From Escherichia phage vB_EcoM_G2494: a DNA stretch of 64,000 nt. Position 1 is the first letter of the stretch. Each line of letters begins with the position of its first letter. Location of the stretch: sequence record MK327935.1, one strand, 5' to 3'. This document shows positions 9,701 through 62,589 of this stretch, in pieces. The position numbers and the translations under genes were made by a program. The notes under the pieces were generated by a model, which had not been told where the DNA came from, made no database searches, and worked only from the letters and a program-made list of their open reading frames with translations.

Positions 9701-9882
9701 AGAACAGCGAATTGTTCCACGGACTTAAAGCAAGCGAACGAAGATTTGCAATGAGTCCACTGTTTGACCAGTCGGCGGTAACATTCTCTATGTTCCGTGA
9801 ACTTGTAGATAAACGGTTGAAGGATAATATAGGGAATCCACGCGATCCGAAGAATCCGACACAGAGGAAAATTAATGGCTAA
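6796..9882 (+). CDS. 7: baseplate wedge initiator gp7
   Basis: 1028 aa, size and position as T4 gp7 (1032 aa). Confidence 0.85.
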   Translation: MIKAPSVTSLTIEKLSANQAYITWDDVGENFFYFVELAETRTRDGEIIPVDELSWVNLGYTADQNWFEDKNLFPEYYYKFRVAVAAEGFEQSKWIETEEFQTFKTNAYNFSMMREFNLANEFIKEKFTYDNREYVKFNTDLIQASLMKEDFVFSPEYANMTNISNYIVVDENFHEIQDHIEKVCIDINRTMLAEMNGVLYLFERFQPIVKVSNDKGQSWKAYKAFNDRVGNPVSRTCVYQSKTTTYVLGYDRIFYGRQASDTRWSADDVRFSDDTITFAKVGDENDLGIDVEVFGVFSRLTGDTTKYAEAMACSDDYLWVGAKDVIRRIRLKNTPVDTVQGSPTFGEKIFDPDVIRVTGNDKAVIQKMDVIDGKLLVFVTGEVKQRYQDPTKPENVVPSDDAGVYLIGSDGLSFQRVFGNTPQEREYIQHGFSNMSTNGDEVFISHYNHHFESILPDPETAAKYELGEAVKYSQEPTYLTDKKIHQTTFRASYDDLRIWELGPQAYYNEADYTWMRRNGVRVWITNDNRPLVVYPEVVYTQEVDTSGILDKNRINREVYDKGTVTCYLNNVKFEGFKQYASGVMFHKNTGEIIGFYQFNYRVRDQVGVYWKPTNVAFVAELQNQVREVPWVPVHYDREQDPDLRPLLNKMTPDSFLLENENFRKFSEYYLQFLSDGSGTYYNKLKNLIKNKYPREQDAYEYLWSEMNKRNIYADKNKRDAVVRFFESRKSDFYSTKGVEASYKFLFKLLYNEDVEIEVESQAGLEYDIVVSSTNIDEDIVGRTIYTPTGRANVTYLEREYEGGRLRWRVTIHNLIGRFEEGQVIKSEKTAFEGMILVGVRGKELLSSSIDYINRSRSQYTMKIKSALPVSRYANDVMRFVHPVGFGFIGVTLLTMFINSGLSMKHTETIIQSLKNYKFDSGLPSVYPDRVADLDVDGNIKKDPLTGKPLYLTSPTMGEEFPVPPEYDQENSELFHGLKASERRFAMSPLFDQSAVTFSMFRELVDKRLKDNIGNPRDPKNPTQRKING

Positions 9883-10870
9883 TGAAAATAGTGTGATCTA
9901 TCGCTCAATCATTACTAGTAAATTCAGAACGGAAAAACTTCTGAATTTCTATAATTCTGTAGGCGATGAGGCAAATCAAATTACAATTTATGGAACGTTT
10001 GGACGTTCGGAGCCGTGGTCAGAAAACGAAAAAGAGGTGGGCTTTGCCCCACCTTATCCGACCGATTCAACGGCTGGTGTTGTTGACATGTGGACCCATA
10101 TGATGGGGGCGGTTAAGATTAACAAATCACTTCTTGATGCGGTTATCCCTCGTAAAGATTGGGGTGATACCGGACAGGATAACCCGCGCACATTCTTTAT
10201 CAATGACATTGTTGTTGTCAACTCAGCACCATATAACCGAACTGATGTTGGTAGCGGCTGGATGGTGTATCGCGTAACCGATGTTCCTGATCGCGGTTAC
10301 TGCTCGATTTCAAGCATTGACGCTAAAGTAGAGTGTTTGAAGTTGGGCGGAAAGTGGACACCCACTCATGAATCAATTGCGCCACCTGTAGGAAAGGGCG
10401 ATTCTATTGATATGGGTGATGGGTATCGTTGGGAATATCTGTACACAATTCCACCTGATGCGGCGATCAACCGTTGCACCAATGAACATATTGTTGTACC
10501 GTTCCCCGATGAACTGCGACAAGATCCGGCGCGTTGGGGCTATGACAATGTGATCACATGGTATAATGACTATAATCTTCTTTATCGGCTGAAAGTAGTA
10601 ACTTTGCGTTTTCAGGCTTATATGGACTCTGCGCAATTCCCAACTACCGCGTTAGTGGGTAATACTGGTTTCCGTCAGTTAAGCATTATCCTTAACCCAT
10701 TGGAAAAGAAAGCACGCCCTAGCGATCCAGACGTTAAAGCGGTCAAAGATAAGTACCGACCGCAAGACTTAGAGCCACACTCAGGCGAAATGATCTACAT
10801 GGAAAACCGACAACCTATCGTTCGGTCATTAGATCAAACAGAACTTGTTTCTGTATTGTTTGAGTTCTAA
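9875..10870 (+). CDS. 8: baseplate wedge subunit gp8
   Basis: 331 aa; near-collinear with T4 gp8 (VIYRSIITSKFRTEKLLNFYNS, GEMIYMENRQPI). Confidence 0.9.
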   Translation: MANENSVIYRSIITSKFRTEKLLNFYNSVGDEANQITIYGTFGRSEPWSENEKEVGFAPPYPTDSTAGVVDMWTHMMGAVKINKSLLDAVIPRKDWGDTGQDNPRTFFINDIVVVNSAPYNRTDVGSGWMVYRVTDVPDRGYCSISSIDAKVECLKLGGKWTPTHESIAPPVGKGDSIDMGDGYRWEYLYTIPPDAAINRCTNEHIVVPFPDELRQDPARWGYDNVITWYNDYNLLYRLKVVTLRFQAYMDSAQFPTTALVGNTGFRQLSIILNPLEKKARPSDPDVKAVKDKYRPQDLEPHSGEMIYMENRQPIVRSLDQTELVSVLFEF

Positions 10871-10883
10871 GTGTATGATTTTA

Positions 10884-10913
10884 AAAGCCAATTCGAGAGA
10901 GTTGGCTTTTTCT
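10884..10913 (+). terminator. rho-independent terminator after gp8
   Basis: stem AAGCCAA/TTGGCTT followed by T-run. Confidence 0.6.
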
Positions 10914-10923
10914 ATTTTGAGTG

Positions 10924-10951
10924 TTGACAATCTTATTTGGTAAGGTATAAT
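10924..10951 (+). promoter_or_regulatory. sigma70-type early promoter
   Basis: GTGTTGACA, ~16-nt spacer, TATAAT, then ACACAC; same architecture as the minus-strand early promoters at 54-62 kb. Confidence 0.7.
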
Positions 10952-10980
10952 ACACACATCTAAACAACGGAGGATAAATT

Positions 10981-11238
10981 ATGGCACGTCGTAAATTTAC
11001 AGATAATTGTGAAGCAATTCAGGTATCCCCTTGCGGTTGGGATGTGATCGCGAACGGTGAAAAGATCGGAGAGATCATCGATCATACTCATTCATCATTA
11101 GCCGATTACACCGATGAACTGTGGGAGGGTATCAACTTCATGAATGACACTAAACGATTCAAGACTATCGACGAAGCTATCTATTTTGTGTATAATCCAA
11201 CTTTCGGTATGTGGGGAACTAGAAAATGGCACGCGTAA
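10981..11238 (+). CDS. hypothetical early protein
   Basis: 85 aa; strong SD GGAGGA; first gene of three-gene cassette; starts MAR. Confidence 0.5.
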   Translation: MARRKFTDNCEAIQVSPCGWDVIANGEKIGEIIDHTHSSLADYTDELWEGINFMNDTKRFKTIDEAIYFVYNPTFGMWGTRKWHA

Positions 11239-11558
11239 ATATTAAATTGCATTACACAATGAATAAAGCTAAGTTCCCAATGCAAAAGCATTACTATGGT
11301 CTACGTGCACAAGATCCTAAACTCTATGGTACTCATTGGTTTTGTAAACATGATAACCAATGGCACACATACGAAGAAATGCACGAGATGATGAAACAGG
11401 GTATTGAATTTAGTTATTCTAATTATGACCATCGTATAACTTGCATTCGAAAATTGAAACGATGGATTCGTAAGAATCCGCAATTTAAAAACTTTGTGTT
11501 CTTTATGTCTCATGTTTATTTGGGACATAGCGTTACCGTCACAGCAAAGGTTAAATAA
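11226..11558 (+). CDS. hypothetical early protein
   Basis: 110 aa; overlaps previous gene; starts MAR. Confidence 0.5.
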   Translation: MARVNIKLHYTMNKAKFPMQKHYYGLRAQDPKLYGTHWFCKHDNQWHTYEEMHEMMKQGIEFSYSNYDHRITCIRKLKRWIRKNPQFKNFVFFMSHVYLGHSVTVTAKVK

Positions 11559-12397
11559 TGGCACGACTTTCTAAACAAGAACAAAAATTACACGATCGGG
11601 CGATGGAGTTGATTAATTCAGATCGTCCATTGACATTTGAAGAAAAAGAATTTTGCTATAACAATTATCATGGCGATGGACTAGGTGGTTCCGGTGCATT
11701 CTTTACCCCAGAATGGCTTGCCTGGGATTTTACCATTGATGCACACTGCACCGGAAAAGTATTAGATCTTTGTGCGGGGATCGGTCGCTTATCTTTTTGT
11801 ATGTTACATCGTTGTAAGCCAGAAAAGATCGTATGCGTCGAACTCAATCCAGAATTTGCGCGGATTGGCAAGCGACTATTACCGGAGGCAGAATGGATCA
11901 CCAGCGATGTATTCGAATTTGAGTCAAACGAAAAATTCGATGTGGTGATCAGCAATCCACCTTTCGGTAAAATCAATACTACAGACACAAAGGATGTATT
12001 TGAATATACTGGCGGTGAGTTTGAATTTAAGGTTATGACGTTAGGCCAGAAGTTTGCCGATGTAGGTTATTTTATTGTTCCTGCTAGTTCCGCTGGGTTT
12101 GCTTATTCCGGTAGACCTTATTATGATGAATCAGTGAAGTCTAATAAATATCTAAAATGGAGCAAACAAACTGGTTTGGTGACTTACGCCGGATGTGGGA
12201 TCGATACATCAATCTATCGCGATGAATGGCATAGTACCAACGTTTTAACAGAAGTGGTTGAGGTTCGGTATTACGAGAAAGAAGCCGTAGAAGCGCCTAA
12301 ATCACGTCCTAACGAACAAATAGAAGAAAGTAAGGAGATCACCTTACCGAAACAGGAAAGCGAGTCTGGGACGCTCTCAGATTTGTTTGACATTTAA
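11558..12397 (+). CDS. gamma-class N6-adenine DNA methyltransferase (orphan)
   Basis: 279 aa; motif X GAFFTP, motif I VLDLCAGIGRLS, motif IV ISNPPFG in gamma order; TAATG start overlap with upstream gene. Confidence 0.65.
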   Translation: MARLSKQEQKLHDRAMELINSDRPLTFEEKEFCYNNYHGDGLGGSGAFFTPEWLAWDFTIDAHCTGKVLDLCAGIGRLSFCMLHRCKPEKIVCVELNPEFARIGKRLLPEAEWITSDVFEFESNEKFDVVISNPPFGKINTTDTKDVFEYTGGEFEFKVMTLGQKFADVGYFIVPASSAGFAYSGRPYYDESVKSNKYLKWSKQTGLVTYAGCGIDTSIYRDEWHSTNVLTEVVEVRYYEKEAVEAPKSRPNEQIEESKEITLPKQESESGTLSDLFDI

Positions 12398-12401
12398 TTA
12401 T

Positions 12402-12428
12402 AAGCCGTCCTTGTGGGCGGCTTTTTTG
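12402..12428 (+). terminator. rho-independent terminator after methyltransferase cassette
   Basis: GC hairpin AAGCCGTCC...GGGCGGCTT followed by TTTTTT. Confidence 0.6.
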
Positions 12429-12437
12429 TATGTATTT

Positions 12438-12445
12438 TATAAATA
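12438..12445 (+). promoter_or_regulatory. T4-type late promoter TATAAATA upstream of gp9
   Basis: exact TATAAATA ~28 nt upstream of ATG. Confidence 0.55.
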
Positions 12446-12472
12446 ATACATCATAACATGAGGAATTAAACA

Positions 12473-13327
12473 ATGGCACAAGTTCCAAAGAAAAGAATAG
12501 ACACAGGTACTGTCGGCAATCCATCGACTGGCGATATCTTATATGATGGCGGTAATAAAATTAACGATAACTTTGATTCAATATATGACGCATTTGCTGA
12601 TCAACGGTTTAAAGACGTAGACCACGGCGTAGGAAGAATGGTTATTCATGCAACCGGATACTATCAGAAACATCCACGTCAAAGCTACTCTGGGTCCGCT
12701 GTTGAGATTGGGAGTCTACACGATATCGATACAACTCAAGGCGCACTTATTGCTATTCTACCTAAAGCAAAGGTTGGTGAGGGTGTTGTATTCATAAATA
12801 GTAACGGTAGCTTTTCAACGACGACACCGCTCAATATTAGAACTCAAGCAGGTGATTCTATTAGCGGGTATTCCGGTGATGCTATAATAACACAACCATT
12901 TTCAAAAGTCACTGTTTGGTGTACTGCCGTTGAAGGTAGTCGCGTAACATGGCGATTGGGTATCGAAAGTATGTTTACCGATACAACAACGCCATTAGAT
13001 AAAACAGTTAACGTAACTGGAGTAGCAACAAACGTTGCTATTGCCGCAAAAACAGAATACGTTTCCATCAAATTATTAACTACCGCTAGCAATACATCCG
13101 GTTCAAAAATGCGTTCAAGTGAAACGCTACTGATGATTGATTCTAAAGCCGGAAAAGTTTATGCGACGGAATATGCAGTTTTGCAGAAGACAGAAGACGA
13201 ATTATACACGGTTCGTTATTTCATCGGTTCCGGCGATAAAGTATATGCAGAGTATAAGGCTACTGGCGAAAATATTCGTTTAGCAGTTAAAGCCGTAGAC
13301 ACTATTAAAATCGGGGTTGCTACATGA
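12473..13327 (+). CDS. 9: baseplate wedge / long tail fiber connector gp9
   Basis: 284 aa; strong similarity to T4 gp9 (IDTG..GN.STGDIL.DGGNKIN, HATGYYQKH, VFINSNGS, SIESMF, KIGVA). Confidence 0.9.
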   Translation: MAQVPKKRIDTGTVGNPSTGDILYDGGNKINDNFDSIYDAFADQRFKDVDHGVGRMVIHATGYYQKHPRQSYSGSAVEIGSLHDIDTTQGALIAILPKAKVGEGVVFINSNGSFSTTTPLNIRTQAGDSISGYSGDAIITQPFSKVTVWCTAVEGSRVTWRLGIESMFTDTTTPLDKTVNVTGVATNVAIAAKTEYVSIKLLTTASNTSGSKMRSSETLLMIDSKAGKVYATEYAVLQKTEDELYTVRYFIGSGDKVYAEYKATGENIRLAVKAVDTIKIGVAT

Positions 13328-15126
13328 AACAATTAATTAATATCGGTAACGTTGTTGATGACGGTACAGGTGATTATCTAAGAAAAGGCGGTCAAAAGAT
13401 TAATGACAACTTTTCTGAACTTTATACTAAGCTGGGGGATGGTGATATCCCTCATGCATCCGGCGCGTGGAAAACTCACACACAACCAGTATTAAAACCA
13501 AATTTTGGTGATGCATGGGCAATTAATACAACGAACAACGCTGTTTCTGTTGAATTGCCTAAAGGAAGCGCGAGTGATTACAATAAAACAATTAAACTTC
13601 GTGATGTTTGGCGCTCATGGGCTGCACATAACGTAACATTGAAGCCAGCACAAGGTGATACCATTAAGGGATCTCCAATCGACCGTGAGTTGTATAAAGA
13701 TTTTATGGATGTTGAACTGGTTTATTGTGCGCCTGGACGCTGGGAATATATCGAAAACAAGCGAGTTGACACGATCACCACGTCTGACCTAAGCACAGTA
13801 GCTAAGGAAGTTTATATTGCCACAGAAGGGCAAACAGATTTCCCTAATGTATTTGGTTCTAACACATATAACACTCGAAATGTTGAAGTATATTATCGAG
13901 GAAACCTTTTATATTATGGCAAGTCTTTTAGTAATGACTCTAACTACGGTTCAATTGGTGAGGATGGATCACTTGTTGAACTTGATGGCAAAAGCATAAA
14001 ACTTCGTTTTCCTTGTTCGGCTGGGGACACCGTTCAAATTATTACATATATGGACGGAATTGCATCATTCCGATCTAGTTATATCACACACACAATTAGA
14101 GTGTATGATACCGGAATGACAGCACTAGAAACTATTCCGGGTGAAGTGTGGGTAGGTGATTTATCGACGAAAAAAGAATTTACCAATGCTGATTTGGGAG
14201 TTAGTAAACGTGATATAATTAACCCAAATTCATTTGAGTTATTAATAAATGGCACTCAAATGATTAAAGCTGGTGATGCTGATCTTCCTTCGTTTGTTTG
14301 TGAAGGTGCTGACGGAGAAACCGAAGAGAGTTGCGCACTTGCTGGCGGTCAGTGGGTACAGTCTGGAGAAGATTATTCACTGGTATTTGATGAGAATAGC
14401 ATTGTAACAGGGATTAAATTAGCTAAAGCGTTGGACAATAGAGATACTATAACAATTCGTTGGTTTAATAACGATATCGGAACTCTATTAGAATGGGATG
14501 GTGTCGGCGGAATTAAAGAAAAAGCAGACAAGATTTATCTCAATAACGAAGACGAAGTTAATTTAACAAAACAAATTGAATATACAGACTTCCAGAATCC
14601 TAGTCAGAAAAACACTCGTCCGGCAGAAGAGTATTCAGGTCGAATTATGGATATATATTCACTGTTTGATATTTTTCATCCGGTCGGCACGATATACGAA
14701 AACGCACATAACCCAGCTAACCCAGCGACCTATATGGGGTTTGGTATCTGGGTTCGGTATGCGGAAGGAGAATTTCTTGCTGGTTGGTCTTCCGATGCCA
14801 GCGACCAGAATTTTGCATTAAACAATAACGATCTTGATATTCATGGACAACCTACACACACCGCTGGTGGTACTGGTGGTGAAGTTGCCTATCAAATCAA
14901 GAAAGATATGATTCCTGAATTACAATCCAGCGATCGTGTTTTGGTGAAAGACGATACAGGGTCAATTATCATTGGTGGCTGTCAAGTTGATCCTGATGCG
15001 GCAGGTCCAGCGTTTACGAAATATAGAGAGGATATCGTAAAAGTTAATTCTGGAAATGCTGATCCATCAATGATGGGCATTCTTCCTCCATATCGCACCG
15101 TTCATCGCTGGTTAAGGGTAGGTTAA
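13324..15126 (+). CDS. 10: baseplate wedge subunit and tail pin gp10
   Basis: 600 aa; N-terminal domain resembles gp9 N-terminus; size as T4 gp10. Confidence 0.8.
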   Translation: MKQLINIGNVVDDGTGDYLRKGGQKINDNFSELYTKLGDGDIPHASGAWKTHTQPVLKPNFGDAWAINTTNNAVSVELPKGSASDYNKTIKLRDVWRSWAAHNVTLKPAQGDTIKGSPIDRELYKDFMDVELVYCAPGRWEYIENKRVDTITTSDLSTVAKEVYIATEGQTDFPNVFGSNTYNTRNVEVYYRGNLLYYGKSFSNDSNYGSIGEDGSLVELDGKSIKLRFPCSAGDTVQIITYMDGIASFRSSYITHTIRVYDTGMTALETIPGEVWVGDLSTKKEFTNADLGVSKRDIINPNSFELLINGTQMIKAGDADLPSFVCEGADGETEESCALAGGQWVQSGEDYSLVFDENSIVTGIKLAKALDNRDTITIRWFNNDIGTLLEWDGVGGIKEKADKIYLNNEDEVNLTKQIEYTDFQNPSQKNTRPAEEYSGRIMDIYSLFDIFHPVGTIYENAHNPANPATYMGFGIWVRYAEGEFLAGWSSDASDQNFALNNNDLDIHGQPTHTAGGTGGEVAYQIKKDMIPELQSSDRVLVKDDTGSIIIGGCQVDPDAAGPAFTKYREDIVKVNSGNADPSMMGILPPYRTVHRWLRVG

Positions 15127-15127
15127 T

Positions 15128-15772
15128 ATGATTTCTAAAACACGTTCTAAAGCAAGCGTATTTTCTAGCGACGCAGCATTCATTTCATACGATCCGGGGT
15201 CTAAAGACCCCATTATTGGTGACATTCGCCCAATTGGTGGATTAAACGTAGACCAATCTCGCAAAGGTTCTTTTATTAACAACGTACAATCAGCCATTGA
15301 TGATTTGTATAGCATTTCTATGCTTAATGTCGGTGATGTATTGGTAACTACAAATTCAACTCCACCGGAAGCGGCGGGACAAATAGAAACTCTTTCTTTC
15401 ACTGGAACGGTAACAAATAAACACGATCCAGCCGCGAAAAAAGTTGTGATTGAAGTTTTGGGTTATCCATTTGTTGTTAATGTTGGAACATCGAATGTTG
15501 CATTATGCGAAATGGTCACAACAAAATTTACTGAATTGAAAGACAAAAGTATCTTATTCTCTAGAGTTGAGAGGAAAGGTACTGGCAACGATAAAATAGA
15601 GATTCAGTATATTGATTCAAATGCACACGAAGCAACGGTCGTAGAAAAATATGGTATTAGCGTTCGTGGGGAAATAAATTCCCCTGCTCGTTATGGTTAT
15701 GGTGCATGGTCCAGAATGGGAACGGAAGAAAAATTTGGTTCAACACTATTTTATTTTAAGCGTATTGCGTAA
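15128..15772 (+). CDS. 11: baseplate wedge subunit and tail pin gp11
   Basis: 214 aa, position and size. Confidence 0.7.
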   Translation: MISKTRSKASVFSSDAAFISYDPGSKDPIIGDIRPIGGLNVDQSRKGSFINNVQSAIDDLYSISMLNVGDVLVTTNSTPPEAAGQIETLSFTGTVTNKHDPAAKKVVIEVLGYPFVVNVGTSNVALCEMVTTKFTELKDKSILFSRVERKGTGNDKIEIQYIDSNAHEATVVEKYGISVRGEINSPARYGYGAWSRMGTEEKFGSTLFYFKRIA

Positions 15773-15782
15773 GGTGTAAATT

Positions 15783-17186
15783 ATGAATAACACTATTAAT
15801 CACGTAAAAGACGATGCACAGTATGTTAAGTTTGACCCTACCGGAAATTGGCCTAGCAATATAAAAAACGTACAAGCGGCATTAGCCGCTATTCAGGGGT
15901 TTGCTATTGCAGGTCTTCCAACGGCAACCGAAGAAACAGCGGGTATTGCTGAAATTGCTACTCAAAAAGAAGTAGATGATGGGTTGGATGGAACTAAAAT
16001 TGTTACCCCAAAAACATTGGCTGTTAAGCTGTCAAGACCGGACGCAACAAAACTTGTCAAAGGGATCACTCGCTATGCTAATAACGATGAAGCTATGGGC
16101 GATACTCCAAATATTGCAATTGGTCCTGATACATTAACCCATGTATTCGAGAAGAAGAAGGCAACGGAAACCGTACAGGGTACAATTAAAATTTGTTCTA
16201 TGGATGCGGCAAAAATAGGTAGCGATGACACTATGGCAGTAACGCCTAAAAAGATGCACGCTGCGATTGCTCAGATTGTTCCTGGATTGATCCCAGAGCA
16301 AAATACCGCTTCCGAATCCCGTGAGGGTCTAGTTAGGCTGGCAACAAGCCAACAAACGCTTGCTGGTACTATCAGAGAAGGATTTGCCGTTAGCCCATAT
16401 GCATTTTCCAACGCAAGAGCCAATGAAAATCAGGCGGGTACTGTTAAAATTGCGTCATCCCAACAAATGATTGACGGTAATGACAACACAGTAGTAGTAT
16501 CAGCACAAAAATTTGCGAACACTAAAGCAACCACTGGACAATTCGGTGTTGTTAAGCTAACAGATAATCCCAGTTCCGGTGAAGCAAATGCTGCGTTATC
16601 TGCAAATGCTCGTGTATTGCCTCTAAGCGGTGGTGTCGTTACTGGTGATGTGTATCGTCATAGTGGAGGTGACGGAAACCAGTTTACCACTAAAAACGAA
16701 ATGGATGCATGGTGTATGCCAATTGGTGCAATTATTCTAACTGCATTCAATAGCAATGATCACGGCGCATTTAAAATTTGTAACGGTCAATGGTTAAATA
16801 AACACCAATATCCAGTATTATTTTCACGAATCGGTTTCACTTACGGCGGAGATGGCGGAGACAACTTTGCTCTACCCGATATGCGAGGGCTTGTTGCTAG
16901 AGGATGCGACCACGGTCGAGGACTAGACCCAGGTCGTGGATTTGGTACTTATCAAGACGACACCATGCAACATATGACAGGTAACTTCCCTGTAGCTAAC
17001 CGTTGGCGCGGTTGGACTGGTGGTGCATTTGCCATCACAGGCGGTCAATGGAGCACGAACTATAAAAACGGTGGTGGTGATGATTGGGGTAGTATTGTTA
17101 ACTTTGACAGCGCAAGACAGGTTAGAACGTCTGGCGAAACTCGCGTTAAAAGCCTTGCATTAAACTACATGATAAGGGTACAATAA
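15783..17186 (+). CDS. 12: short tail fiber gp12
   Basis: 467 aa; blocks shared with T4 gp12 (YVKFDP, LATSQ..AGTIREGFAVSPYAF, NFALPDMRGL, SLALNYMIRV). Confidence 0.85.
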   Translation: MNNTINHVKDDAQYVKFDPTGNWPSNIKNVQAALAAIQGFAIAGLPTATEETAGIAEIATQKEVDDGLDGTKIVTPKTLAVKLSRPDATKLVKGITRYANNDEAMGDTPNIAIGPDTLTHVFEKKKATETVQGTIKICSMDAAKIGSDDTMAVTPKKMHAAIAQIVPGLIPEQNTASESREGLVRLATSQQTLAGTIREGFAVSPYAFSNARANENQAGTVKIASSQQMIDGNDNTVVVSAQKFANTKATTGQFGVVKLTDNPSSGEANAALSANARVLPLSGGVVTGDVYRHSGGDGNQFTTKNEMDAWCMPIGAIILTAFNSNDHGAFKICNGQWLNKHQYPVLFSRIGFTYGGDGGDNFALPDMRGLVARGCDHGRGLDPGRGFGTYQDDTMQHMTGNFPVANRWRGWTGGAFAITGGQWSTNYKNGGGDDWGSIVNFDSARQVRTSGETRVKSLALNYMIRVQ

Positions 17187-18955
17187 TGATCGAACAGTTA
17201 AACATTCGAAAGATCCCTAACGTCGATGGTGTCCCTGGAGAGGGACAGCATTCTATTAGCTGGATTAAAAATGGTGAATGTCTAAGCGCAGCAACCACAG
17301 AAACAGGACACGAGGGGACGCTTAACCGCGCCCCTTATGCGATTCAAGAAAATATTGTTCGTCTGGATGAAAATTCTAAGACAACGGTAACAAAAGTTAA
17401 CGAAGTTGTTACAGCAGTTAATGATATTAAAACTACTTTAGGCGCGGTTGCTGATGGTAGTATTATTGATATTGTCAATCAAACTATTGCAAAGGTTGAG
17501 TCTGTAGAAGAAAATTTAGGAGAAACTTCAAGGACATTACAAACCACAGTAGATGAACTGGCAGAAACAGGAAAGAAAATTGGTGTTCGTCCGGCAGCAG
17601 ATCCGAGTACACGAACAATATATGATGATATTTCTTTCATCAAACAAGAATTGGGTGCTTTCCCTAACTTCACTATCAACGGTTCTCCAGATCCGGGTAG
17701 TTCAGGTTCCGGTATCAAATATCGAGTTATCCAGAATACGGAAGCATTAAACAACCACGATCAGCGAATCCGCCAACTAGAAAACGACTGGCAAGATTCT
17801 GACGTTGGAGAGCTAACAAAACAAGTTAACAAAATACGAAGCGAGCTAGGCGATACATCACTAGCAACACAGGACAATGTTTATCTTCGTCTTCGCACAA
17901 ACACTAGCAATATCGCTAGTATATCAAACGAAGTTCAGGAAGTAAAGAAAGCGATTCTATTTGAATCAATTCCTGATATCGGGACTAAAGTAACTAAGCT
18001 ACAATCTGATTATACACAGCTTAATGATGAAGTCAACGGCTTTGACGCTGGTATCCGTCCTCGTTTAACTCTTCTGGAAAATACGATTGGCAATCCTCAA
18101 GCCGCTGGAAGTATTGATTATCGATTGACTAATCAAGAACGGGAATTTGTAGATCTTAAATCTATTGTCGGTGTTAGTGGTGCTGATGGCCTACGTGGTG
18201 AGGTTGCACGAATCTCTAACACAGTTGGTACTGATAGTGAGCGTCATACTATCGCAGGTCGTCTAAAAATTGTAGAAAATACACAGGGACGACTAGAAGC
18301 TAGCGTACAGGATATCGAGCAAATGATCGGAGATCGAGATTCCGGTCTAACCGCCGGGGTTATTAAGCTGTCAAGCGACATGTACGGCAATCCAGAAGGA
18401 AGCACGCAGCTTGAACAAGATGGGGTCGTGAAAACTGTTAAGGAATTGAGCACATCAAATGCAAGCAAGGTAACAGACGTTCCTGATGATGGTTTCCATT
18501 ATCTACGTAAGCACGGGGAATGGGTTCAGGTCGCATGGGCGGCTGGTACATTTAAAAACACCGCTCAGATTGATATTACTCTCGACGGACAAGATCAATA
18601 CAAAGGAATCCCGCTAAACGATATGACCGAAGAAGTTCCTGCGCGTGGAATGGTTAAGAGCGAATCTCTTGTTACGGTTAACGACAAAGGCTTATTCCGT
18701 TGTGATTTCCGTTGTTCTGTACATGCGGCAAATAACGCTACTTTCGTAGTCGGTATTGCTAAAAATGGTCTGATTGTACATGAGGTACGAAATGGTCATT
18801 ATGGAACTGATGATTTAATTAGCTATTCTACCAGTGCTTTCCTAAATATTGAAAAGGGCGACCGGATCGATATTCGCATTAAGGGCGTATCCGAAGAAGC
18901 ATTAGCGCAACAGCTACAAATTAAAGAGTTCCTCTTTGGAATTTCTCCGGTATAA
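17186..18955 (+). CDS. wac: fibritin (wac) with ~130-aa extension beyond the foldon-like segment
   Basis: N-terminus SISWIKNGE as T4 fibritin; coiled-coil heptads; foldon-like HYLRKHGEWVQV followed by extra C-terminal domain. Confidence 0.8.
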   Translation: MIEQLNIRKIPNVDGVPGEGQHSISWIKNGECLSAATTETGHEGTLNRAPYAIQENIVRLDENSKTTVTKVNEVVTAVNDIKTTLGAVADGSIIDIVNQTIAKVESVEENLGETSRTLQTTVDELAETGKKIGVRPAADPSTRTIYDDISFIKQELGAFPNFTINGSPDPGSSGSGIKYRVIQNTEALNNHDQRIRQLENDWQDSDVGELTKQVNKIRSELGDTSLATQDNVYLRLRTNTSNIASISNEVQEVKKAILFESIPDIGTKVTKLQSDYTQLNDEVNGFDAGIRPRLTLLENTIGNPQAAGSIDYRLTNQEREFVDLKSIVGVSGADGLRGEVARISNTVGTDSERHTIAGRLKIVENTQGRLEASVQDIEQMIGDRDSGLTAGVIKLSSDMYGNPEGSTQLEQDGVVKTVKELSTSNASKVTDVPDDGFHYLRKHGEWVQVAWAAGTFKNTAQIDITLDGQDQYKGIPLNDMTEEVPARGMVKSESLVTVNDKGLFRCDFRCSVHAANNATFVVGIAKNGLIVHEVRNGHYGTDDLISYSTSAFLNIEKGDRIDIRIKGVSEEALAQQLQIKEFLFGISPV

Positions 18956-18961
18956 GAAATT

Positions 18962-18984
18962 AAAGGGGCGTTAAGCCCCTTTTC
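18962..18984 (+). terminator. terminator hairpin after wac
   Basis: GGGGCGTTAAGCCCC followed by TTTT. Confidence 0.55.
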
Positions 18985-19001
18985 CGTTTATAGGTGATAT
19001 T

Positions 19002-19934
19002 ATGTCAGGATATGTAACCAATAACCCAAGAGAATTAAAAGACGCTATTCTGCGTCGTTTAGGCGCACCAGTAATTAACGTAGAAGTCACAGAAGACCAG
19101 ATTTACGATTGTATTCAGAGAGCACTAGAACTCTATGGGGAATATCATTTCGATGGTGTGAATAAAGGATATAAAGTATTTCGTGTTAGTGCAGAGCAAG
19201 CGCAACATGGGGTATTTGATTTAAGCGATTCTGGTGTATTCGCAGTAACTAAAATAATTCGAACAAACGTAGGTAGCGCGGCTACGATGGATGGCACTGC
19301 CGTTTATCCGTGGTTTACCGACTTTCTGTTGGGTTTAGCGGGTGTAAATGGCGGTTTAGGATCTGGCTGTAGTAAATTTTATGGTCCAAATGCAATGGGC
19401 GGTGATCTAGGATATTTCGAACAGCTTATGAGCTATCGAGCCACTATGCAAAATATGCTCAATCCGCTGCCAGACTATTGGTATAATAGCGCAAACGGAC
19501 AACTTAAGATTACAGGAAACTTCCGAGAAGGTGATCTCATTGTTGTTGAATTATATGTTAAAAGCTATATAGACGTTCCTGATATGATCGGCGCGGTTGC
19601 TGGTTATGCTCATGCAGGAGGATGTTCTACCGCTGGCGGGATTAGCGCCGTTTATGATAATCCAACTGCTGGTTTAAGCGGGATTGTTGCTGGAATGGGA
19701 CCGATCCGTGATAACAAGCAGGGCGCATATAATAACCGTTGGGTTAAAGACATGGCAACCGCTTTCACTAAGGAGGTTTGGGGGTCCATCATGGCTAAAC
19801 ATCAAGGTCTGCAATTACCCGGCGGTGTCACTGTTGATGGTATCCGAATCATTGAAGAAGCACGCGCCGACATTGAGAAATTGCGACAAGAACTAGAATT
19901 ATTAGATCCTCCGTTCGGCATCCTCATGATTTGA
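19002..19934 (+). CDS. 13: neck protein gp13
   Basis: 310 aa; highly similar to T4 gp13 ([62 protein letters not shown]). Confidence 0.9.
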
Positions 19935-19970
19935 TTTATTGGGGGAGTATTCCCCCATTTGGAGTAACAT

Positions 19971-20711
19971 ATGTTTAACAACACTCTTTTTGCTCGCCTT
20001 GAATCGCAGAAGGACTACGAGAATACACGACAAACAGAGATTCTTAATCCTTATGTGAACTTTCACAAATATACAAATACTCAGACGTTAGCCGACGTTA
20101 TGGTCGCCGAAGCTATTCAGATGCGAGGTGTAGAATTATATTACATCCCTCGTGAATTTGTCAAACCAGATATGATCTTTGGTGAGGATGTTCAAAGCAA
20201 ATTTACTAAAGCATGGAAATTTGCGGCTTATATTAACTCATTTGATGGGTATGAAGGAGCGGGTAATTTCTTCTCTAGTTTCGGGTATCAAGCTAATGAT
20301 GAACTAACTTTTACGGTTAACCCCAACCTATTCAAGCATCAAGTAGATGATCAAGAGCCAAAATCAGGTGACTTAATTTATATTCCAATGAGTAATGATC
20401 TCTTTGAAATTAATTACGTCGAGCCATATCAGCCGTTTTTTCAGGCTGGAAAAAATGCCATGCGTAAAATTATTGCAGAGAAATTCGTGTATAGCGGTGA
20501 GGAATTGCGACCAGAATTACAACGCAATGAGGGAATTAATGTTGATGAGTTTGCGGATCTGGATCTTGCACCGATCACTAATCTGGACGGGTTAACAGAT
20601 ATCAACTTAGATCAGTACAAAGAAGATAAGCAATTCAGAAGCGAAGGACAAGATTTTATTGATCCGTTTGATCCTATTAATGGCAAGGGTTCACCTTTCG
20701 CCGATTTTTGA
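19971..20711 (+). CDS. 14: neck protein gp14
   Basis: 246 aa, position and size. Confidence 0.7.
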
Positions 20712-20751
20712 TAAATACTTGTATTGATATAATATAAGGATCTAATGACTT

Positions 20752-21507
20752 ATGAAAAACTATTATCTATACGAAATAAAGAACAATATAAATGGTAAGA
20801 TATATGTTGGCATTCGTGGGTATGATGGTGACATAAGTCAAGATCCTTATATGGGTAGTGGATTGACTCTTAAGAGGTCTATTAAAAAGAACGGGATAGA
20901 AAACTTCACAAAAACAATTCTCAAAACGTTTGACTCATGGAAAGAGGCAAGGAAAGCAGAAAGAGAAATAGTTACAGAGGAATTTGTAAAAAGAGAAGAT
21001 ACCTATAATGTTTCGGTTGGTGGACAAGGTGGAAATACTCACGCTGGGATGAGCGAAGAACGAAGAAAACTTGCAAGCGAAAGACACGCAGAAGCAAACC
21101 GAAATAGAGTATGGAAGCAAGAATCTAGAGATAAGGTTAGCGCAAGATTCAAAGGTCATAAGCTATCACAGAAGCAGATAGACGCGCTAAAGAAGGCAAA
21201 CACAGGAAGAAAGTTCACAGAAGAACACAAGTTCAAAATAGGTAAAACGTGGCGAGGAAAGAAACGACCAGATATAGGAGAGAAGGTTGCGGCAAAATTA
21301 ACAGGGAGAAAACTACCCCCAGAACATGTGGCAGCAATAACGCAAAATACACCGAGAGGAAAACAACACTTTAGGGCAAAAAGATTCTTCATCGACGATA
21401 TGGAATTTTATATTTTGAGTGACGCAGCTAAAATGTTTGGTATAAGTTATAAAACGGTTAAAGCTAGACTTCTCTCAGATAAGTTTCCTACATGGAGATA
21501 TGAATAA
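20752..21507 (+). CDS. free-standing GIY-YIG homing endonuclease (Seg-like)
   Basis: GIY-YIG motif YLYEIKNNINGKIYVGI; NUMOD-like repeats; C-terminal HTH ILSDAAKMFGISYKTVKARL; inserted between gp14 and gp15. Confidence 0.8.
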   Translation: MKNYYLYEIKNNINGKIYVGIRGYDGDISQDPYMGSGLTLKRSIKKNGIENFTKTILKTFDSWKEARKAEREIVTEEFVKREDTYNVSVGGQGGNTHAGMSEERRKLASERHAEANRNRVWKQESRDKVSARFKGHKLSQKQIDALKKANTGRKFTEEHKFKIGKTWRGKKRPDIGEKVAAKLTGRKLPPEHVAAITQNTPRGKQHFRAKRFFIDDMEFYILSDAAKMFGISYKTVKARLLSDKFPTWRYE

Positions 21508-22396
21508 ATGTTTTCACATTTTTACAATTCGTCAATTAGACGGTATATTGTATTGCTGGGTAATTTATTCTCCGGCGTACAAATTAAAAGGGTGCGTAGC
21601 GACGGTGAGCGTTTTATTAAAGTTCCTATCACCTACGCAAAGAAAGAAAAATTCATGATGAGTCTGGACAAATATAACAATATCTCAAGTGAGGAAGACG
21701 TAGCAAAGGTAGAAACTATTTTACCGCGTATGTGTCTTTCTTTGATTGATATGACATACGCCCAGAACTTTAAAACAAATATTGCAAATAAGACAGTACC
21801 AAAATATACGGCTGATGGAATCAGGAGCGTAACACAATATAATCCTGTACCATATAAGTTTACTTTCGAGTTAGGGATTTATACGCGTACAATATAATCC
21901 TGTACCATATAAGTTTACTTTCGAGTTAGGGATTTATACGCGTAACGAAGATGATATGTTTCAGATAATTGAACAGATTCTTCCTTACTTCCAGCCTCAT
22001 TTTAACTGTAAGATTAAAGAACTACACGGTAATGATGTATGGATTGATCGAGATATTCAGGTCACTATTAGTTCTATTACTCCAGATGAACAGGTAGGCG
22101 AAGATAAGTTTTCTCGTCGTCGTCTTGAGTGGACCATTATGTTCGAATTTATCGGCTTTATATATCCTCCAGCTACCGACGTTAAGGGGGAAATTAGAAC
22201 GATTTATCTTGATTTTCATGCTAATTCTCGTGAATTAAATCCTAGCGGTAATTTTGAATCAGTGGATCACGAGGTCGTTAAACGTGACGTCGAGCAAGAA
22301 GATTGGGACGGAACAATCAAAGAATCATATTCTAGTGATATTCCAATACCAGTTGCACCAACTCCACCGGGTCCACGTATTGTAAGAGAATTTTAA
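21508..22396 (+). pseudogene. 15: gene 15 (tail sheath stabiliser/tail completion) split into two ORFs (21508..21897 and 21956..22396) by a frameshifting tandem duplication
   Basis: N-part ends ...ELGIYTRTI*, C-part starts MFQIIEQILPYFQPHF; removing one 55-bp repeat copy restores the continuous T4-like sequence ...GIYTRNEDDMFQIIEQ... Confidence 0.7.
21835..21944 (+). repeat. perfect 55-bp tandem direct duplication inside gene 15
   Basis: caatataatcctgtaccatataagtttactttcgagttagggatttatacgcgta present twice back to back (21835-21889 and 21890-21944). Confidence 0.85.
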
Positions 22397-22409
22397 GAGG
22401 TATTTTATT

Positions 22410-26015
<3,606 letters not shown>

Positions 26016-32497: not shown

Positions 32498-34081
32498 ATG
32501 AAAACTACCAAAGAACTGATGGAAAAATGGTCCCCGCTGCTGGAGAACGAAAAACTGCCGGAAATCGCAACTGCGTCTAAGCAGAAACTGGTTGCTAAAA
32601 TTCTGGAATCTCAGGAAGCGGATTTTGCTGTAGACCCGATCTATAAGGATGAAAAAGTTGTTGAAGCATTTGGTGGCTTTATCACCGAAGCAGAAGTTGC
32701 TGGCGACCACGGTTACGATGCATCCAAAATCGCCGCAGGTCAGACCACTGGTGCAATCACCAACGTAGGTCCGGCTGTTATCGGTATGGTTCGCCGTGCT
32801 ATCCCTAACCTGATCGCATTTGATATTTGTGGCGTTCAGCCGATGAGCACTCCGACTAGCCAGATCTTTGCAATCCGTTCTGTATACGGTGGCGATCCGC
32901 TGAAATCCGATGCTCGCGAAGCATTCCACCCGATGTTTGCGCCGGATGTATATCATAGCTCTCTTGCCGCTAAAGACGCAACCGCAAGCTCTCCGACTGG
33001 TACTGCATTCCAGAAACTGCAAAACAGCCAAGCAATCAACGAAGGTGATATTGTATATCACGTATTCGAACAGACTGGTATTGCATATCTGCAAAACGTT
33101 AAAGGTTCTACCGTAACACCTACTCAGGCGGGAGATACCCTTGATGAATGCGTAATGAAGCTGATCGAAAAAGGCGAACTGGCTGAAATTGCTGCTGGTA
33201 TGGCTACTTCCATCGCTGAATTGCAGCAAGGGTTTAATGGTTCTCAGAATAACCCGTGGAACGAAATGTCAATGCGTATTGACAAACAGGTTGTTGAAGC
33301 GAAATCTCGCCAACTGAAAGCCCGTTACTCTATCGAAGTTGCGCAGGATCTGCGTGCTGTACACGGTATGGATGCTGACGCTGAACTGAATGCTATCCTG
33401 GCTAACGAAGTTCTGCTGGAAATCAACCGTGAAATCGTTGACGTCATCAACTTTACCGCTCAGGTTGGTAAGACTGGTATGACTCAGACCGTTGGTTCTA
33501 AAGCTGGTGTATTTGACCTGCAAGACCCGATCGATACTCGCGGTGCTCGTTGGGCTGGTGAATCCTTCAAATCTCTGATCTATCAGATCGACAAAGAAGC
33601 TGCTGAAATCGCTCGTCAGACTGGTCGCGGTGCTGGTAACTTTATTATCGCTTCCCGTAACGTTGTAAACATTCTGGCTTCTGCTGATCAGGGTATCAGT
33701 CTTGCTATGCAGGGTGCTGCACAGGGTCTGAACACCGACACCACTAAAGCTGTTTTCGCTGGTGTTCTGGCTGGTAAGTATAAAGTATTCATCGACCAGT
33801 ATGCTCGTCAGGACTACTTCACCGTAGGTTACAAAGGCGACAACGAAATGGATGCTGGTATCTACTATGCTCCGTATGTTGCTCTGACTCCGCTGCGTGC
33901 AACTGATCCGCAGTCTTTCCACCCGGTTCTGGGCTTCAAGACTCGCTACGGCATCGGTATTAACCCGTTTGCAGACAGCAAATCCCAGGCACCGTCCGCT
34001 CGCATCACCTCCGGTATGTTGAGCAAAGACAGCGTAGGTAAAAACGCATACTTCCGTCGTGTATGGGTTAAAGGTTGCTAA
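32498..34081 (+). CDS. 23: major capsid protein gp23
   Basis: 527 aa; near-collinear identity to T4 gp23 (PLLENEKLPEI, GDHGYDASKIAAGQT, MVRRAIPNLIAFDICGVQPM, GIYYAPYVALTPLR, KTRYGIGINPFA, NAYFRRV). Confidence 0.95.
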   Translation: MKTTKELMEKWSPLLENEKLPEIATASKQKLVAKILESQEADFAVDPIYKDEKVVEAFGGFITEAEVAGDHGYDASKIAAGQTTGAITNVGPAVIGMVRRAIPNLIAFDICGVQPMSTPTSQIFAIRSVYGGDPLKSDAREAFHPMFAPDVYHSSLAAKDATASSPTGTAFQKLQNSQAINEGDIVYHVFEQTGIAYLQNVKGSTVTPTQAGDTLDECVMKLIEKGELAEIAAGMATSIAELQQGFNGSQNNPWNEMSMRIDKQVVEAKSRQLKARYSIEVAQDLRAVHGMDADAELNAILANEVLLEINREIVDVINFTAQVGKTGMTQTVGSKAGVFDLQDPIDTRGARWAGESFKSLIYQIDKEAAEIARQTGRGAGNFIIASRNVVNILASADQGISLAMQGAAQGLNTDTTKAVFAGVLAGKYKVFIDQYARQDYFTVGYKGDNEMDAGIYYAPYVALTPLRATDPQSFHPVLGFKTRYGIGINPFADSKSQAPSARITSGMLSKDSVGKNAYFRRVWVKGC

Positions 34082-62322: not shown

Positions 62323-62354
62323 ATTCGCTTAAGGGTGGATTCGCTTAAGGGTGG
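62323..62354. repeat. perfect 16-bp tandem duplication (attcgcttaagggtgg x2)
   Basis: copies at 62323-62338 and 62339-62354. Confidence 0.8.
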
Positions 62355-62589
62355 AAACTTCCTCAAACTCTGGGTTTTCTAGATACAGTTGAACAAATTG
62401 TTTCTCTACCATCTCGGCTTTTAGCTTGTCTGCTTGTTCCTGTTCATATGATTTAGTTGGACCCAACACCAACAAAATGATAAAGGTGATCAACGATAGG
62501 AGAACATAACCGATAACGCTACGGTTTAAACGGCTTGCGTACATGCCTACCAGGAAAACAAAAAGGATATAGATAAACAGAAAGAACAT
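62329..62589 (-). CDS. small membrane protein, C-terminus truncated by a 16-bp tandem duplication
   Basis: 86 aa with two hydrophobic segments; removing one repeat copy extends the frame to ~109 aa ending at ~62244. Confidence 0.5.
   Translation of the reverse strand: MFFLFIYILFVFLVGMYASRLNRSVIGYVLLSLITFIILLVLGPTKSYEQEQADKLKAEMVEKQFVQLYLENPEFEEVSTLKRIHP

Follow-up and report, generated by a model that had tools for sequence, protein, structure and literature searches.

The junction between genes 14 and 15 of Escherichia phage vB_EcoM_G2494 (MK327935.1) is occupied by a predicted homing endonuclease gene, and a short distance downstream gene 15 is broken by a 55-bp duplication, which raises the question of whether the first of these features gave rise to the second. 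We analyzed a stretch of 64,000 nucleotides of this genome (hereafter the window), for which a first-pass annotation, made from the letters alone, had described the open reading frame (ORF) at 20752-21507 as a free-standing GIY-YIG endonuclease and had suggested that the duplication may be a repair footprint of its cleavage. We favor, with a probability of roughly 0.78, the reading in which two unrelated features stand side by side, i.e., a homing endonuclease cassette at the 14/15 junction and a 55-bp repeat derived from the assembler. Based on megablast searches with 19900-22500 and 10000-34999, the window was placed in Krischvirus (RB49-like T4-type coliphages, Straboviridae), and the closest genome in the phage collection was that of phage FL20 (98.4% identity over 95% of 25 kb), with none of the genomes in the collection being identical. 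The gene order around the endonuclease ORF is wac, 13, 14, endonuclease ORF, 15, 16, and 17, with gene 14 as its 5′ neighbor and gene 15 (Pfam T4-gp15_tss) beginning at 21508 (Table 1).

The description of the ORF product as a Seg-like GIY-YIG endonuclease with NUMOD-like repeats and a C-terminal helix-turn-helix (HTH) was confirmed by the Pfam and PHROG searches, by the repeat modules and by the I-TevI fold of the predicted structure. The ORF matched PHROG 314 ('homing endonuclease') with an E-value of 1.3e-46, and I-TevI_DNA-bd (PF20987), found at amino acids (aa) 203-250, was the sole curated family to pass its cut-off (E = 1.4e-7, 31.7 bits vs. 27). Below their cut-offs were the Pfam families SegE_GIY-YIG at aa 5-79 (E = 7.8e-4, 20.1 bits vs. 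25) and NUMOD3 at aa 152-173 (E = 2.8e-3), as well as the NCBIfam model TIGR01453 ('group I intron endonuclease') at aa 7-246 (E = 3.7e-10, 40.2 vs. 56.05). The N-terminus ('YYLYEI...GKIYVGI') corresponds to the GIY and YIG motifs, and in an alignment of 42 sequences (the ORF together with 41 metagenomic and phage homologues) the residues Y7 of GIY, Y18 and G20 of YIG, E70, and N86 were invariant. A hidden Markov model (HMM) alignment matched the endonuclease to I-TevI residues 5-22, and, judging from motif order and fold, E70 and N86 are the probable equivalents of the metal-binding residues E75 and N90 of I-TevI. In the AlphaFold2 (AF2) model the N-terminal domain reached predicted local distance difference test (pLDDT) values of 90-98 over aa 1-90, and the top three Protein Data Bank (PDB) matches returned by Foldseek were to the I-TevI catalytic domain (1MK0/1LN0; probability 1.00, TM-target 0.61-0.65, with an E-value of only 4e-3), while the I-TevI DNA-binding domain was weakly matched in the fold search of the model. 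Searching the PDB with the single sequence gave no match, and the profile search gave only a marginal 18-residue match to I-TevI. The linker holds G[RKH]K modules of 17 aa each, which begin at aa 135, 152, 169, and 185. The ORF is intergenic, following the complete gp14 ORF and preceding the start codon of gene 15, and is part of neither an intron nor an intein. This evidence supports the presence of an intact, free-standing Seg-like homing endonuclease gene, whose cleavage activity is predicted from the sequence.

The boundaries of the cassette in which this gene resides were set by comparison with RB49 and with eight further genomes that have the empty site. The sequence common to carriers and empty-site genomes ends with ...TGATAAATACT (window position 20719) and restarts with AATTCGTCAATTAG (21526), and at the place of the ~806-nt carrier cassette the empty-site genomes have 36 nt, CATAAACAAGGGGGTCAAATGTTCGGTTGGCACTAT. 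Gene 15 of the carriers starts with ATGTTTTCACATTTTTAC, which encodes MFSHFY as opposed to MFGWHY, with 10 of the 18 nt in codons 1-6 differing and codons 2-6 being recoded; in silico removal of the cassette yields the contiguous RB49 arrangement. A 33-mer from the core of the empty-site junction was found as an exact match in 10 of 10 empty-site loci and was absent from all carriers, as well as from the whole window at up to three mismatches, i.e., cassette and empty site are mutually exclusive. The nine empty-site genomes show no nucleotide diversity (π = 0) from the junction through the initial 24 nt of gene 15, compared to π = 0.077 in their gp14. RB49 and ~45 other Krischvirus records lack the endonuclease gene and have flanks that are 98-99% identical, while eight records carry it. 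The comparison of the gp14-gp15 junction with endonuclease-free relatives, which the first-pass annotation had proposed as a check, revealed a presence/absence polymorphism (~45 empty-site vs. 8 carrier records) in which an otherwise invariant 36-nt junction is replaced and the beginning of gene 15 is recoded.

Among seven carriers, π amounts to 0.0032 in the cassette (0.0026 in the ORF), 0.037 in gp14, and 0.022 in the rest of gene 15, which makes the cassette approximately 10-fold less diverse than its flanks. The carriers have at least two gene 15 haplotypes, which were found in non-carriers as well, and no carrier-specific flank haplotype (i.e., no long co-conversion tract) was detected beyond the cassette. 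Sharp boundaries, low cassette diversity and mixed flank haplotypes together fit the signature expected of a recently spreading homing element, and the most plausible homing target would be the gp14/gp15 junction itself, with short co-conversion tracts on both sides.

As an entity the endonuclease is already known, having been annotated since JSE, and there is nothing new in its existence. The same protein (at least 99% identity) is present at the same gp14/gp15 junction in JSE (EpJSE_00154, YP_002922226), TB34, SAP, FL20, MIZ4, MIZ5, and AV108, and bears the annotation 'homing endonuclease' in all seven. The protein encoded by FL20 is 100% identical, as is the copy on a metagenome scaffold from the European Nucleotide Archive (ENA), and the ORF is intact in 7 of 7 carriers, with 0-3 nt differences and 0-1 amino-acid changes. 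Petrov et al. 2010 reported one seg-like GIY-YIG homing endonuclease gene in JSE and none in RB49 (PMC2993671). Relatives outside the genus reach at most 43% identity; among those named by annotation, the SegD-like protein of Mosigvirus JM10 comes closest (36% identical across 94% of the length, E = 6e-32). Paralogues with 34-42% identity were observed at the 13/14 junction of other phages, namely 'segC' of Phi1 and phiS (194 aa; Phi1 phi1p149.1), the copies of KFS-EC (gp039) and MIZ4 (271 aa), and that of E26 (311 aa). They belong to the same family, sit in the same neck-gene cluster and share the Arg after the YVGx motif, differing in the junction that they occupy; in the window the 13/14 junction is empty (36-nt spacer, 19935-19970), and in MIZ4 both junctions are occupied. 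Given these paralogues, the neck-gene cluster is therefore an insertion hot spot for GIY-YIG endonucleases.

In the mechanism that we propose, the enzyme produced during a mixed infection would bind the empty junction of an endonuclease-free relative via its NUMOD3/HTH region, the GIY-YIG domain would cut at the junction or within a few tens of bp, and recombination-dependent repair would then copy the ~806-bp cassette from the carrier genome (intronless homing). Replacement of the 36-nt junction and recoding of gene 15 codons 2-6 would make the carrier allele immune. Krischvirus DNA is not known to be modified with glucosylated hydroxymethylcytosine (glucosyl-hmC), and self-protection would therefore have to be sequence-based. 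The premise of the first-pass annotation that homing endonucleases cut in, or next to, the neighboring gene of endonuclease-free relatives agrees with the literature on the T4 Seg enzymes (PMC2988022).

The endonuclease gene apparently lacks a promoter of its own and would depend on late transcripts that start farther upstream and extend into it. The AT-rich upstream region noted in the first-pass annotation is real (20% GC in the 40-nt spacer upstream of the ORF vs. 40.5% for the window), but no canonical late promoter (TATAAATA) was found between 12445 and 26011, and sigma-70-like matches upstream of the endonuclease were not above the shuffled expectation. The sequence GATAAATA (20710-20717), which matches the late promoter at 7 of 8 positions, was considered as a cassette promoter and rejected, as it is present in the empty-site genomes too. 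The best promoter-like match of the region is a perfect 12/12 sigma-70 consensus (TTGACA-18-TATAAT) at 20135-20164, located on the minus strand and antisense in gene 14, and it may be there by chance. At the other end of the ORF, the stop codon TAA (21505-21507) abuts the ATG of gene 15 (21508), and the AAGGGGG that serves as the native gene 15 ribosome-binding site (RBS) in empty-site genomes is replaced in the carrier allele. The 3′ end of the endonuclease gene would supply the RBS of gene 15 instead, an arrangement that would disfavor loss of the cassette. The seg and mob genes of T4 are promoter-less cassettes in which signals of the essential gene that follows are embedded (PMC2988022), a pattern that the putative expression signals of the window cassette appear, by analogy, to match.

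Table 1. Coordinates of the features at the gene 14-gene 15 locus of the window, with the basis for each.
Feature	Position	Strand	Basis
Gene 14 (neck protein/head closure)	19971..20711	+	Pfam T4_neck-protein, E = 6.8e-102; gp14 annotation in JSE and RB49
Mobile cassette, composed of a new spacer, the endonuclease ORF, and the first 18 nt of gene 15 (recoded)	20720..21525	+	Alignments with empty-site genomes
Shine-Dalgarno-like AAGGA, 11 nt ahead of the endonuclease ATG	20736..20740	+	Sequence; putative function
Free-standing GIY-YIG homing endonuclease ORF, 251 aa, ATG...TAA	20752..21507	+	Pfam, PHROG, and NCBIfam matches
GIY-YIG catalytic domain, aa 1-95	20752..21036	+	Invariant residues; AF2 pLDDT 90-98; Foldseek
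Four tandem 17-aa NUMOD3-like helical modules, aa 135-201	21154..21354	+	G[RKH]K modules; Pfam NUMOD3 sub-threshold; AF2 helices
C-terminal I-TevI-type HTH DNA-binding domain, aa 203-250	21358..21501	+	Pfam PF20987
GGAG within the endonuclease ORF, 10 nt ahead of the gene 15 ATG	21494..21497	+	Sequence vs. RB49; putative function
Gene 15 5′ fragment, 129 aa (native residues 1-127, then Thr-Ile and stop)	21508..21897	+	Pfam T4-gp15_tss positions 1-118 of 245
55-bp repeat, copy 1	21834..21888	+	Tandem Repeats Finder (TRF), 100% identity; FL20 BLAST breaks at 21887/21889, 54 nt of FL20 covered twice
55-bp repeat, copy 2	21889..21943	+	Junction GCGT/ACAAT; native gene 15 frame resumes at 21890
Gene 15 3′ part, 146 aa when counted from the first ATG in frame	21956..22396	+	Pfam T4-gp15_tss positions 122-242 of 245

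The duplication, which the first-pass annotation had located about 330 bp downstream of the endonuclease, is real as far as the deposited letters go: it is exact and starts 327 nt past the endonuclease stop codon. TRF reported it at 21834..21944 (period 55, 2.0 copies, 100% matches) as the only repeat of such kind in the 64 kb. It shifts the reading frame (55 = 18 × 3 + 1) of gene 15, an essential gene of T4, and the deletion of one copy gives a gp15 of 277 aa, the length seen in every relative. The homology at the duplication junction is 1 nt (A); a 7-bp flanking microhomology (GCGTAAC), which would favor slippage, was rejected, as the heptamers are 58 bp apart and not 55. None of the 55 Krischvirus records that cover the 261-nt query contains the duplication, each of them, other carriers included, spanning 206 nt (261-55), and the ENA metagenome scaffold with the cassette encodes an intact 277-aa gp15. 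The 33-mer of the duplication junction had no match in IMG/VR, GTDB genomes, or JGI metagenomes, a search of complete E. coli genomes was likewise negative, and an exact look-up of the truncated 129-aa gp15 returned no record. The 55-mer was found in IMG/VR in one empty-site Krischvirus contig as a single internal copy, which is uninformative about its origin. No other frame-breaking indels were present relative to FL20 in 9800-21887. The only other perfect tandem repeat of the window is an exact 16-bp repeat, ATTCGCTTAAGGGTGG, at 62323-62355 (2.1 copies, 100% identity).

That the endonuclease cut gene 15 near nt 326-381 and that the duplication is the footprint of an aberrant repair is highly improbable. 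Seg enzymes can cut hundreds of bp away from their own gene (e.g., SegG and SegF, which cut in genes 32 and 56, respectively; PMC2988022), a 2026 study of T6 under Septu selection found that SegB drives a 718-bp unit to amplify in tandem (PMC13096335), and only 327 nt separate the duplication from the endonuclease gene. A cut at gene 15 nt ~326-381, however, would mean that 21508-21833 is co-converted in every homing event. Over the interval 21527-21833, carriers (π = 0.019) are as diverse as non-carriers (0.020), at six times the diversity of the cassette, so no co-conversion tract extends as far as the duplication. Carriers and non-carriers have the same sequence in the 55-bp region, which leaves no pair of immune and sensitive alleles at this place, the allele-specific change being situated at the junction and in codons 2-6 of gene 15, and gene 15 is intact in all other cassette carriers (seven phages and one metagenome scaffold). 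The JSE-type copies share the 251-aa protein, the insertion point and the recoded gene 15 start, with the duplication being found in the window alone.

The T6 case resembles the window in that a Seg endonuclease and a local tandem repeat occur together in a T-even-type genome. The T6 unit is, however, 718 bp long, multi-copy, includes segB and tRNA-Tyr, has microhomology at its junctions and was selected by Septu, whereas the window has one extra 55-bp copy that is inside gene 15, without microhomology and deleterious. In view of the intact carriers, the lack of a co-conversion tract, the 1-nt homology and the 55-bp length, the repair-footprint proposal of the first-pass annotation was not sustained. 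Marginally less probable still is that the duplication is real and originated from the aberrant, SegB-like repair of an endonuclease break in the phage's own genome, with gp15 being produced as two polypeptides (1-127 plus 2; 132-277) that assemble in trans.

An origin during assembly accounts for the repeat with far better odds. SPAdes-type assemblers leave a terminal k-mer overlap on circular contigs (PMC12509680), and the length of the repeat, which is exact, equals the default largest k of SPAdes/metaSPAdes. We thus consider it quite probable that the duplication is an untrimmed k = 55 overlap of a SPAdes-type circular contig rather than a real mutation, and the true gene 15 is most likely intact at 277 aa. 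Like such overlaps, the repeat of the window is exactly 55 bp long, has arbitrary breakpoints and is unique to one assembly. SPAdes overlaps are normally found at the two contig ends, whereas the copies in the window are adjacent, and a rotation or joining without trimming is required; the terminal overlap would have been brought into tandem when the circularly permuted contig was rotated or re-linearized.

It is unlikely that the duplication is instead a real spontaneous mutation, produced by slippage or illegitimate recombination independently of the endonuclease, with a sub-population or a defective or complemented stock having been recorded as the consensus. T4-type phages undergo illegitimate recombination and duplication, and the repeat is, after all, present in the sequence and exact. 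Microhomology junctions have been noted in T4-type phages (PMC2988022). The junction homology here is 1 nt only. The mutation would frameshift a tail-completion gene that is essential in T4, a change that a plaque-purified lineage should therefore not fix; it would also be unique among more than 55 relatives and would coincide exactly in length with an assembler k-mer.

Several points weigh against the reading of the locus as a homing cassette next to an assembler-derived repeat. The GIY-YIG and NUMOD3 Pfam scores of the endonuclease are under the curated cut-offs, and helix 1 (aa 38-47) contains K41, R42, K45, and K46, of which K46 is near-invariant and R42 variable, leaving the equivalent of the catalytic Arg of I-TevI (R27) ambiguous. 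The low diversity of the cassette could come from one recent acquisition that was spread by ordinary recombination. Regarding the repeat, its position inside the window and not at the record end requires the assumption of an additional rotation, and its 55-bp length could be a coincidence. SegB of T6 promotes local tandem amplification (PMC13096335), so endonuclease-linked duplications exist in principle.

A further possibility is that the endonuclease gene is a remnant that has been domesticated or is decaying, i.e., a DNA-binding/regulatory protein or an inactive passenger that was spread by ordinary recombination and not by homing. We regard this as improbable. Beyond the sub-threshold GIY-YIG score, it could draw on the Arg or Tyr present here at a position where most homologues have a near-invariant His, and on the activity of T4 SegD being listed as 'ND' (PMC2988022). 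The Arg after YVGx (R22, which follows YVGI) is, however, common to the endonuclease and two Krischvirus paralogues of the 13/14 site, so it looks like a subfamily trait, and the catalytic Tyr/Tyr/Glu/Asn residues are conserved. Decay would also have to be reconciled with an ORF that remained intact, with no more than one amino-acid change, in every one of the seven carriers, and with a cassette that is 10-fold less diverse than its flanks and resides on different flank haplotypes, as expected of recent horizontal spread.

The homing cassette that we favor resembles known systems to different degrees. With the T4 Seg family (SegA-G; intronless homing and marker exclusion) the enzyme shares the GIY-YIG domain, the NUMOD3 repeats and the HTH, and the seg genes are, like the window cassette, intergenic, co-oriented and promoter-less between essential genes (PMC2988022). 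The insertion site of segD is 23/24, as compared with 14/15 in the window, and cleavage and homing by the window protein are predicted. I-TevI, the endonuclease of the td intron (1MK0/1LN0 for the catalytic and 1I3J for the DNA-binding domain), has the same design of catalytic domain, linker and HTH. It differs in being intron-encoded and is only 23-24% identical to the window enzyme, whose linker has no evident zinc finger and contains four NUMOD3-like repeats instead.

Other parts of the window also vary among relatives. The 3′ third of wac/fibritin (18400-18915; ORF 17186-18955) shows dense substitutions that set the window and JSE apart from RB49 and TB34, and gene 13, which adjoins this variable block, is almost identical, giving a sharp mosaic boundary near the wac stop codon. 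The region 32900-33250, which lies downstream of the major capsid gene and appears to be non-coding or to hold small ORFs, has a cluster of small indels relative to FL20 and looks like a hypervariable spacer.

Gene 17 (large terminase), which is split, is a more unusual feature than the endonuclease nearby. It consists of two overlapping ORFs in different frames, 22904..24655 (583 aa) and 24636..26015 (459 aa). The first encodes gp17 up to Walker B ('...FIYIDE'), followed by Cys-rich motifs and a C-terminal TnsA-like/phage endonuclease I-like nuclease domain (Pfam PF08722, E = 3e-8; PF05367, E = 9e-7), and the second encodes 106 extra residues, then 'CAFIKNW...' and the remainder of gp17. The insert (~23670-24957) has a length of 1288 nt, not divisible by 3, and has the appearance of an atypically split intein (a short N-part, a C-part of ~106 aa, and Cys1/Cys+1) with an attached nuclease, for which trans-splicing would be expected; no Pfam intein/Hint match was obtained in the insert. 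Its type would be that of the AceL-TerL intein (25/104 aa, PMC11766414), and gene 17, which is essential, would then be a 'fractured gene' (PMC2677866) of cultured coliphages. The split arrangement was also observed in six other Krischvirus records (JK32, kaaroe, TB34, SAP, phiS, and GoldenSnicker), while RB49, JSE, and FL20 have a plain gene 17 of 1824 nt and the P-loop of FL15 holds a different intein, which is contiguous.

For the deposited genome, a frameshift in an essential tail gene is a matter of quality control, and a check of the reads is due before any biological interpretation; the exact 55-bp length points to a trivial and correctable cause. For Krischvirus, the invariant 36-nt gp14/gp15 junction together with codons 2-6 of gene 15 in RB49-type phages represents a predicted homing site that can be tested, and JSE, FL20, and TB34 on the one side and RB49, W115, and FL15 on the other would offer natural donor/recipient pairs for intronless homing.

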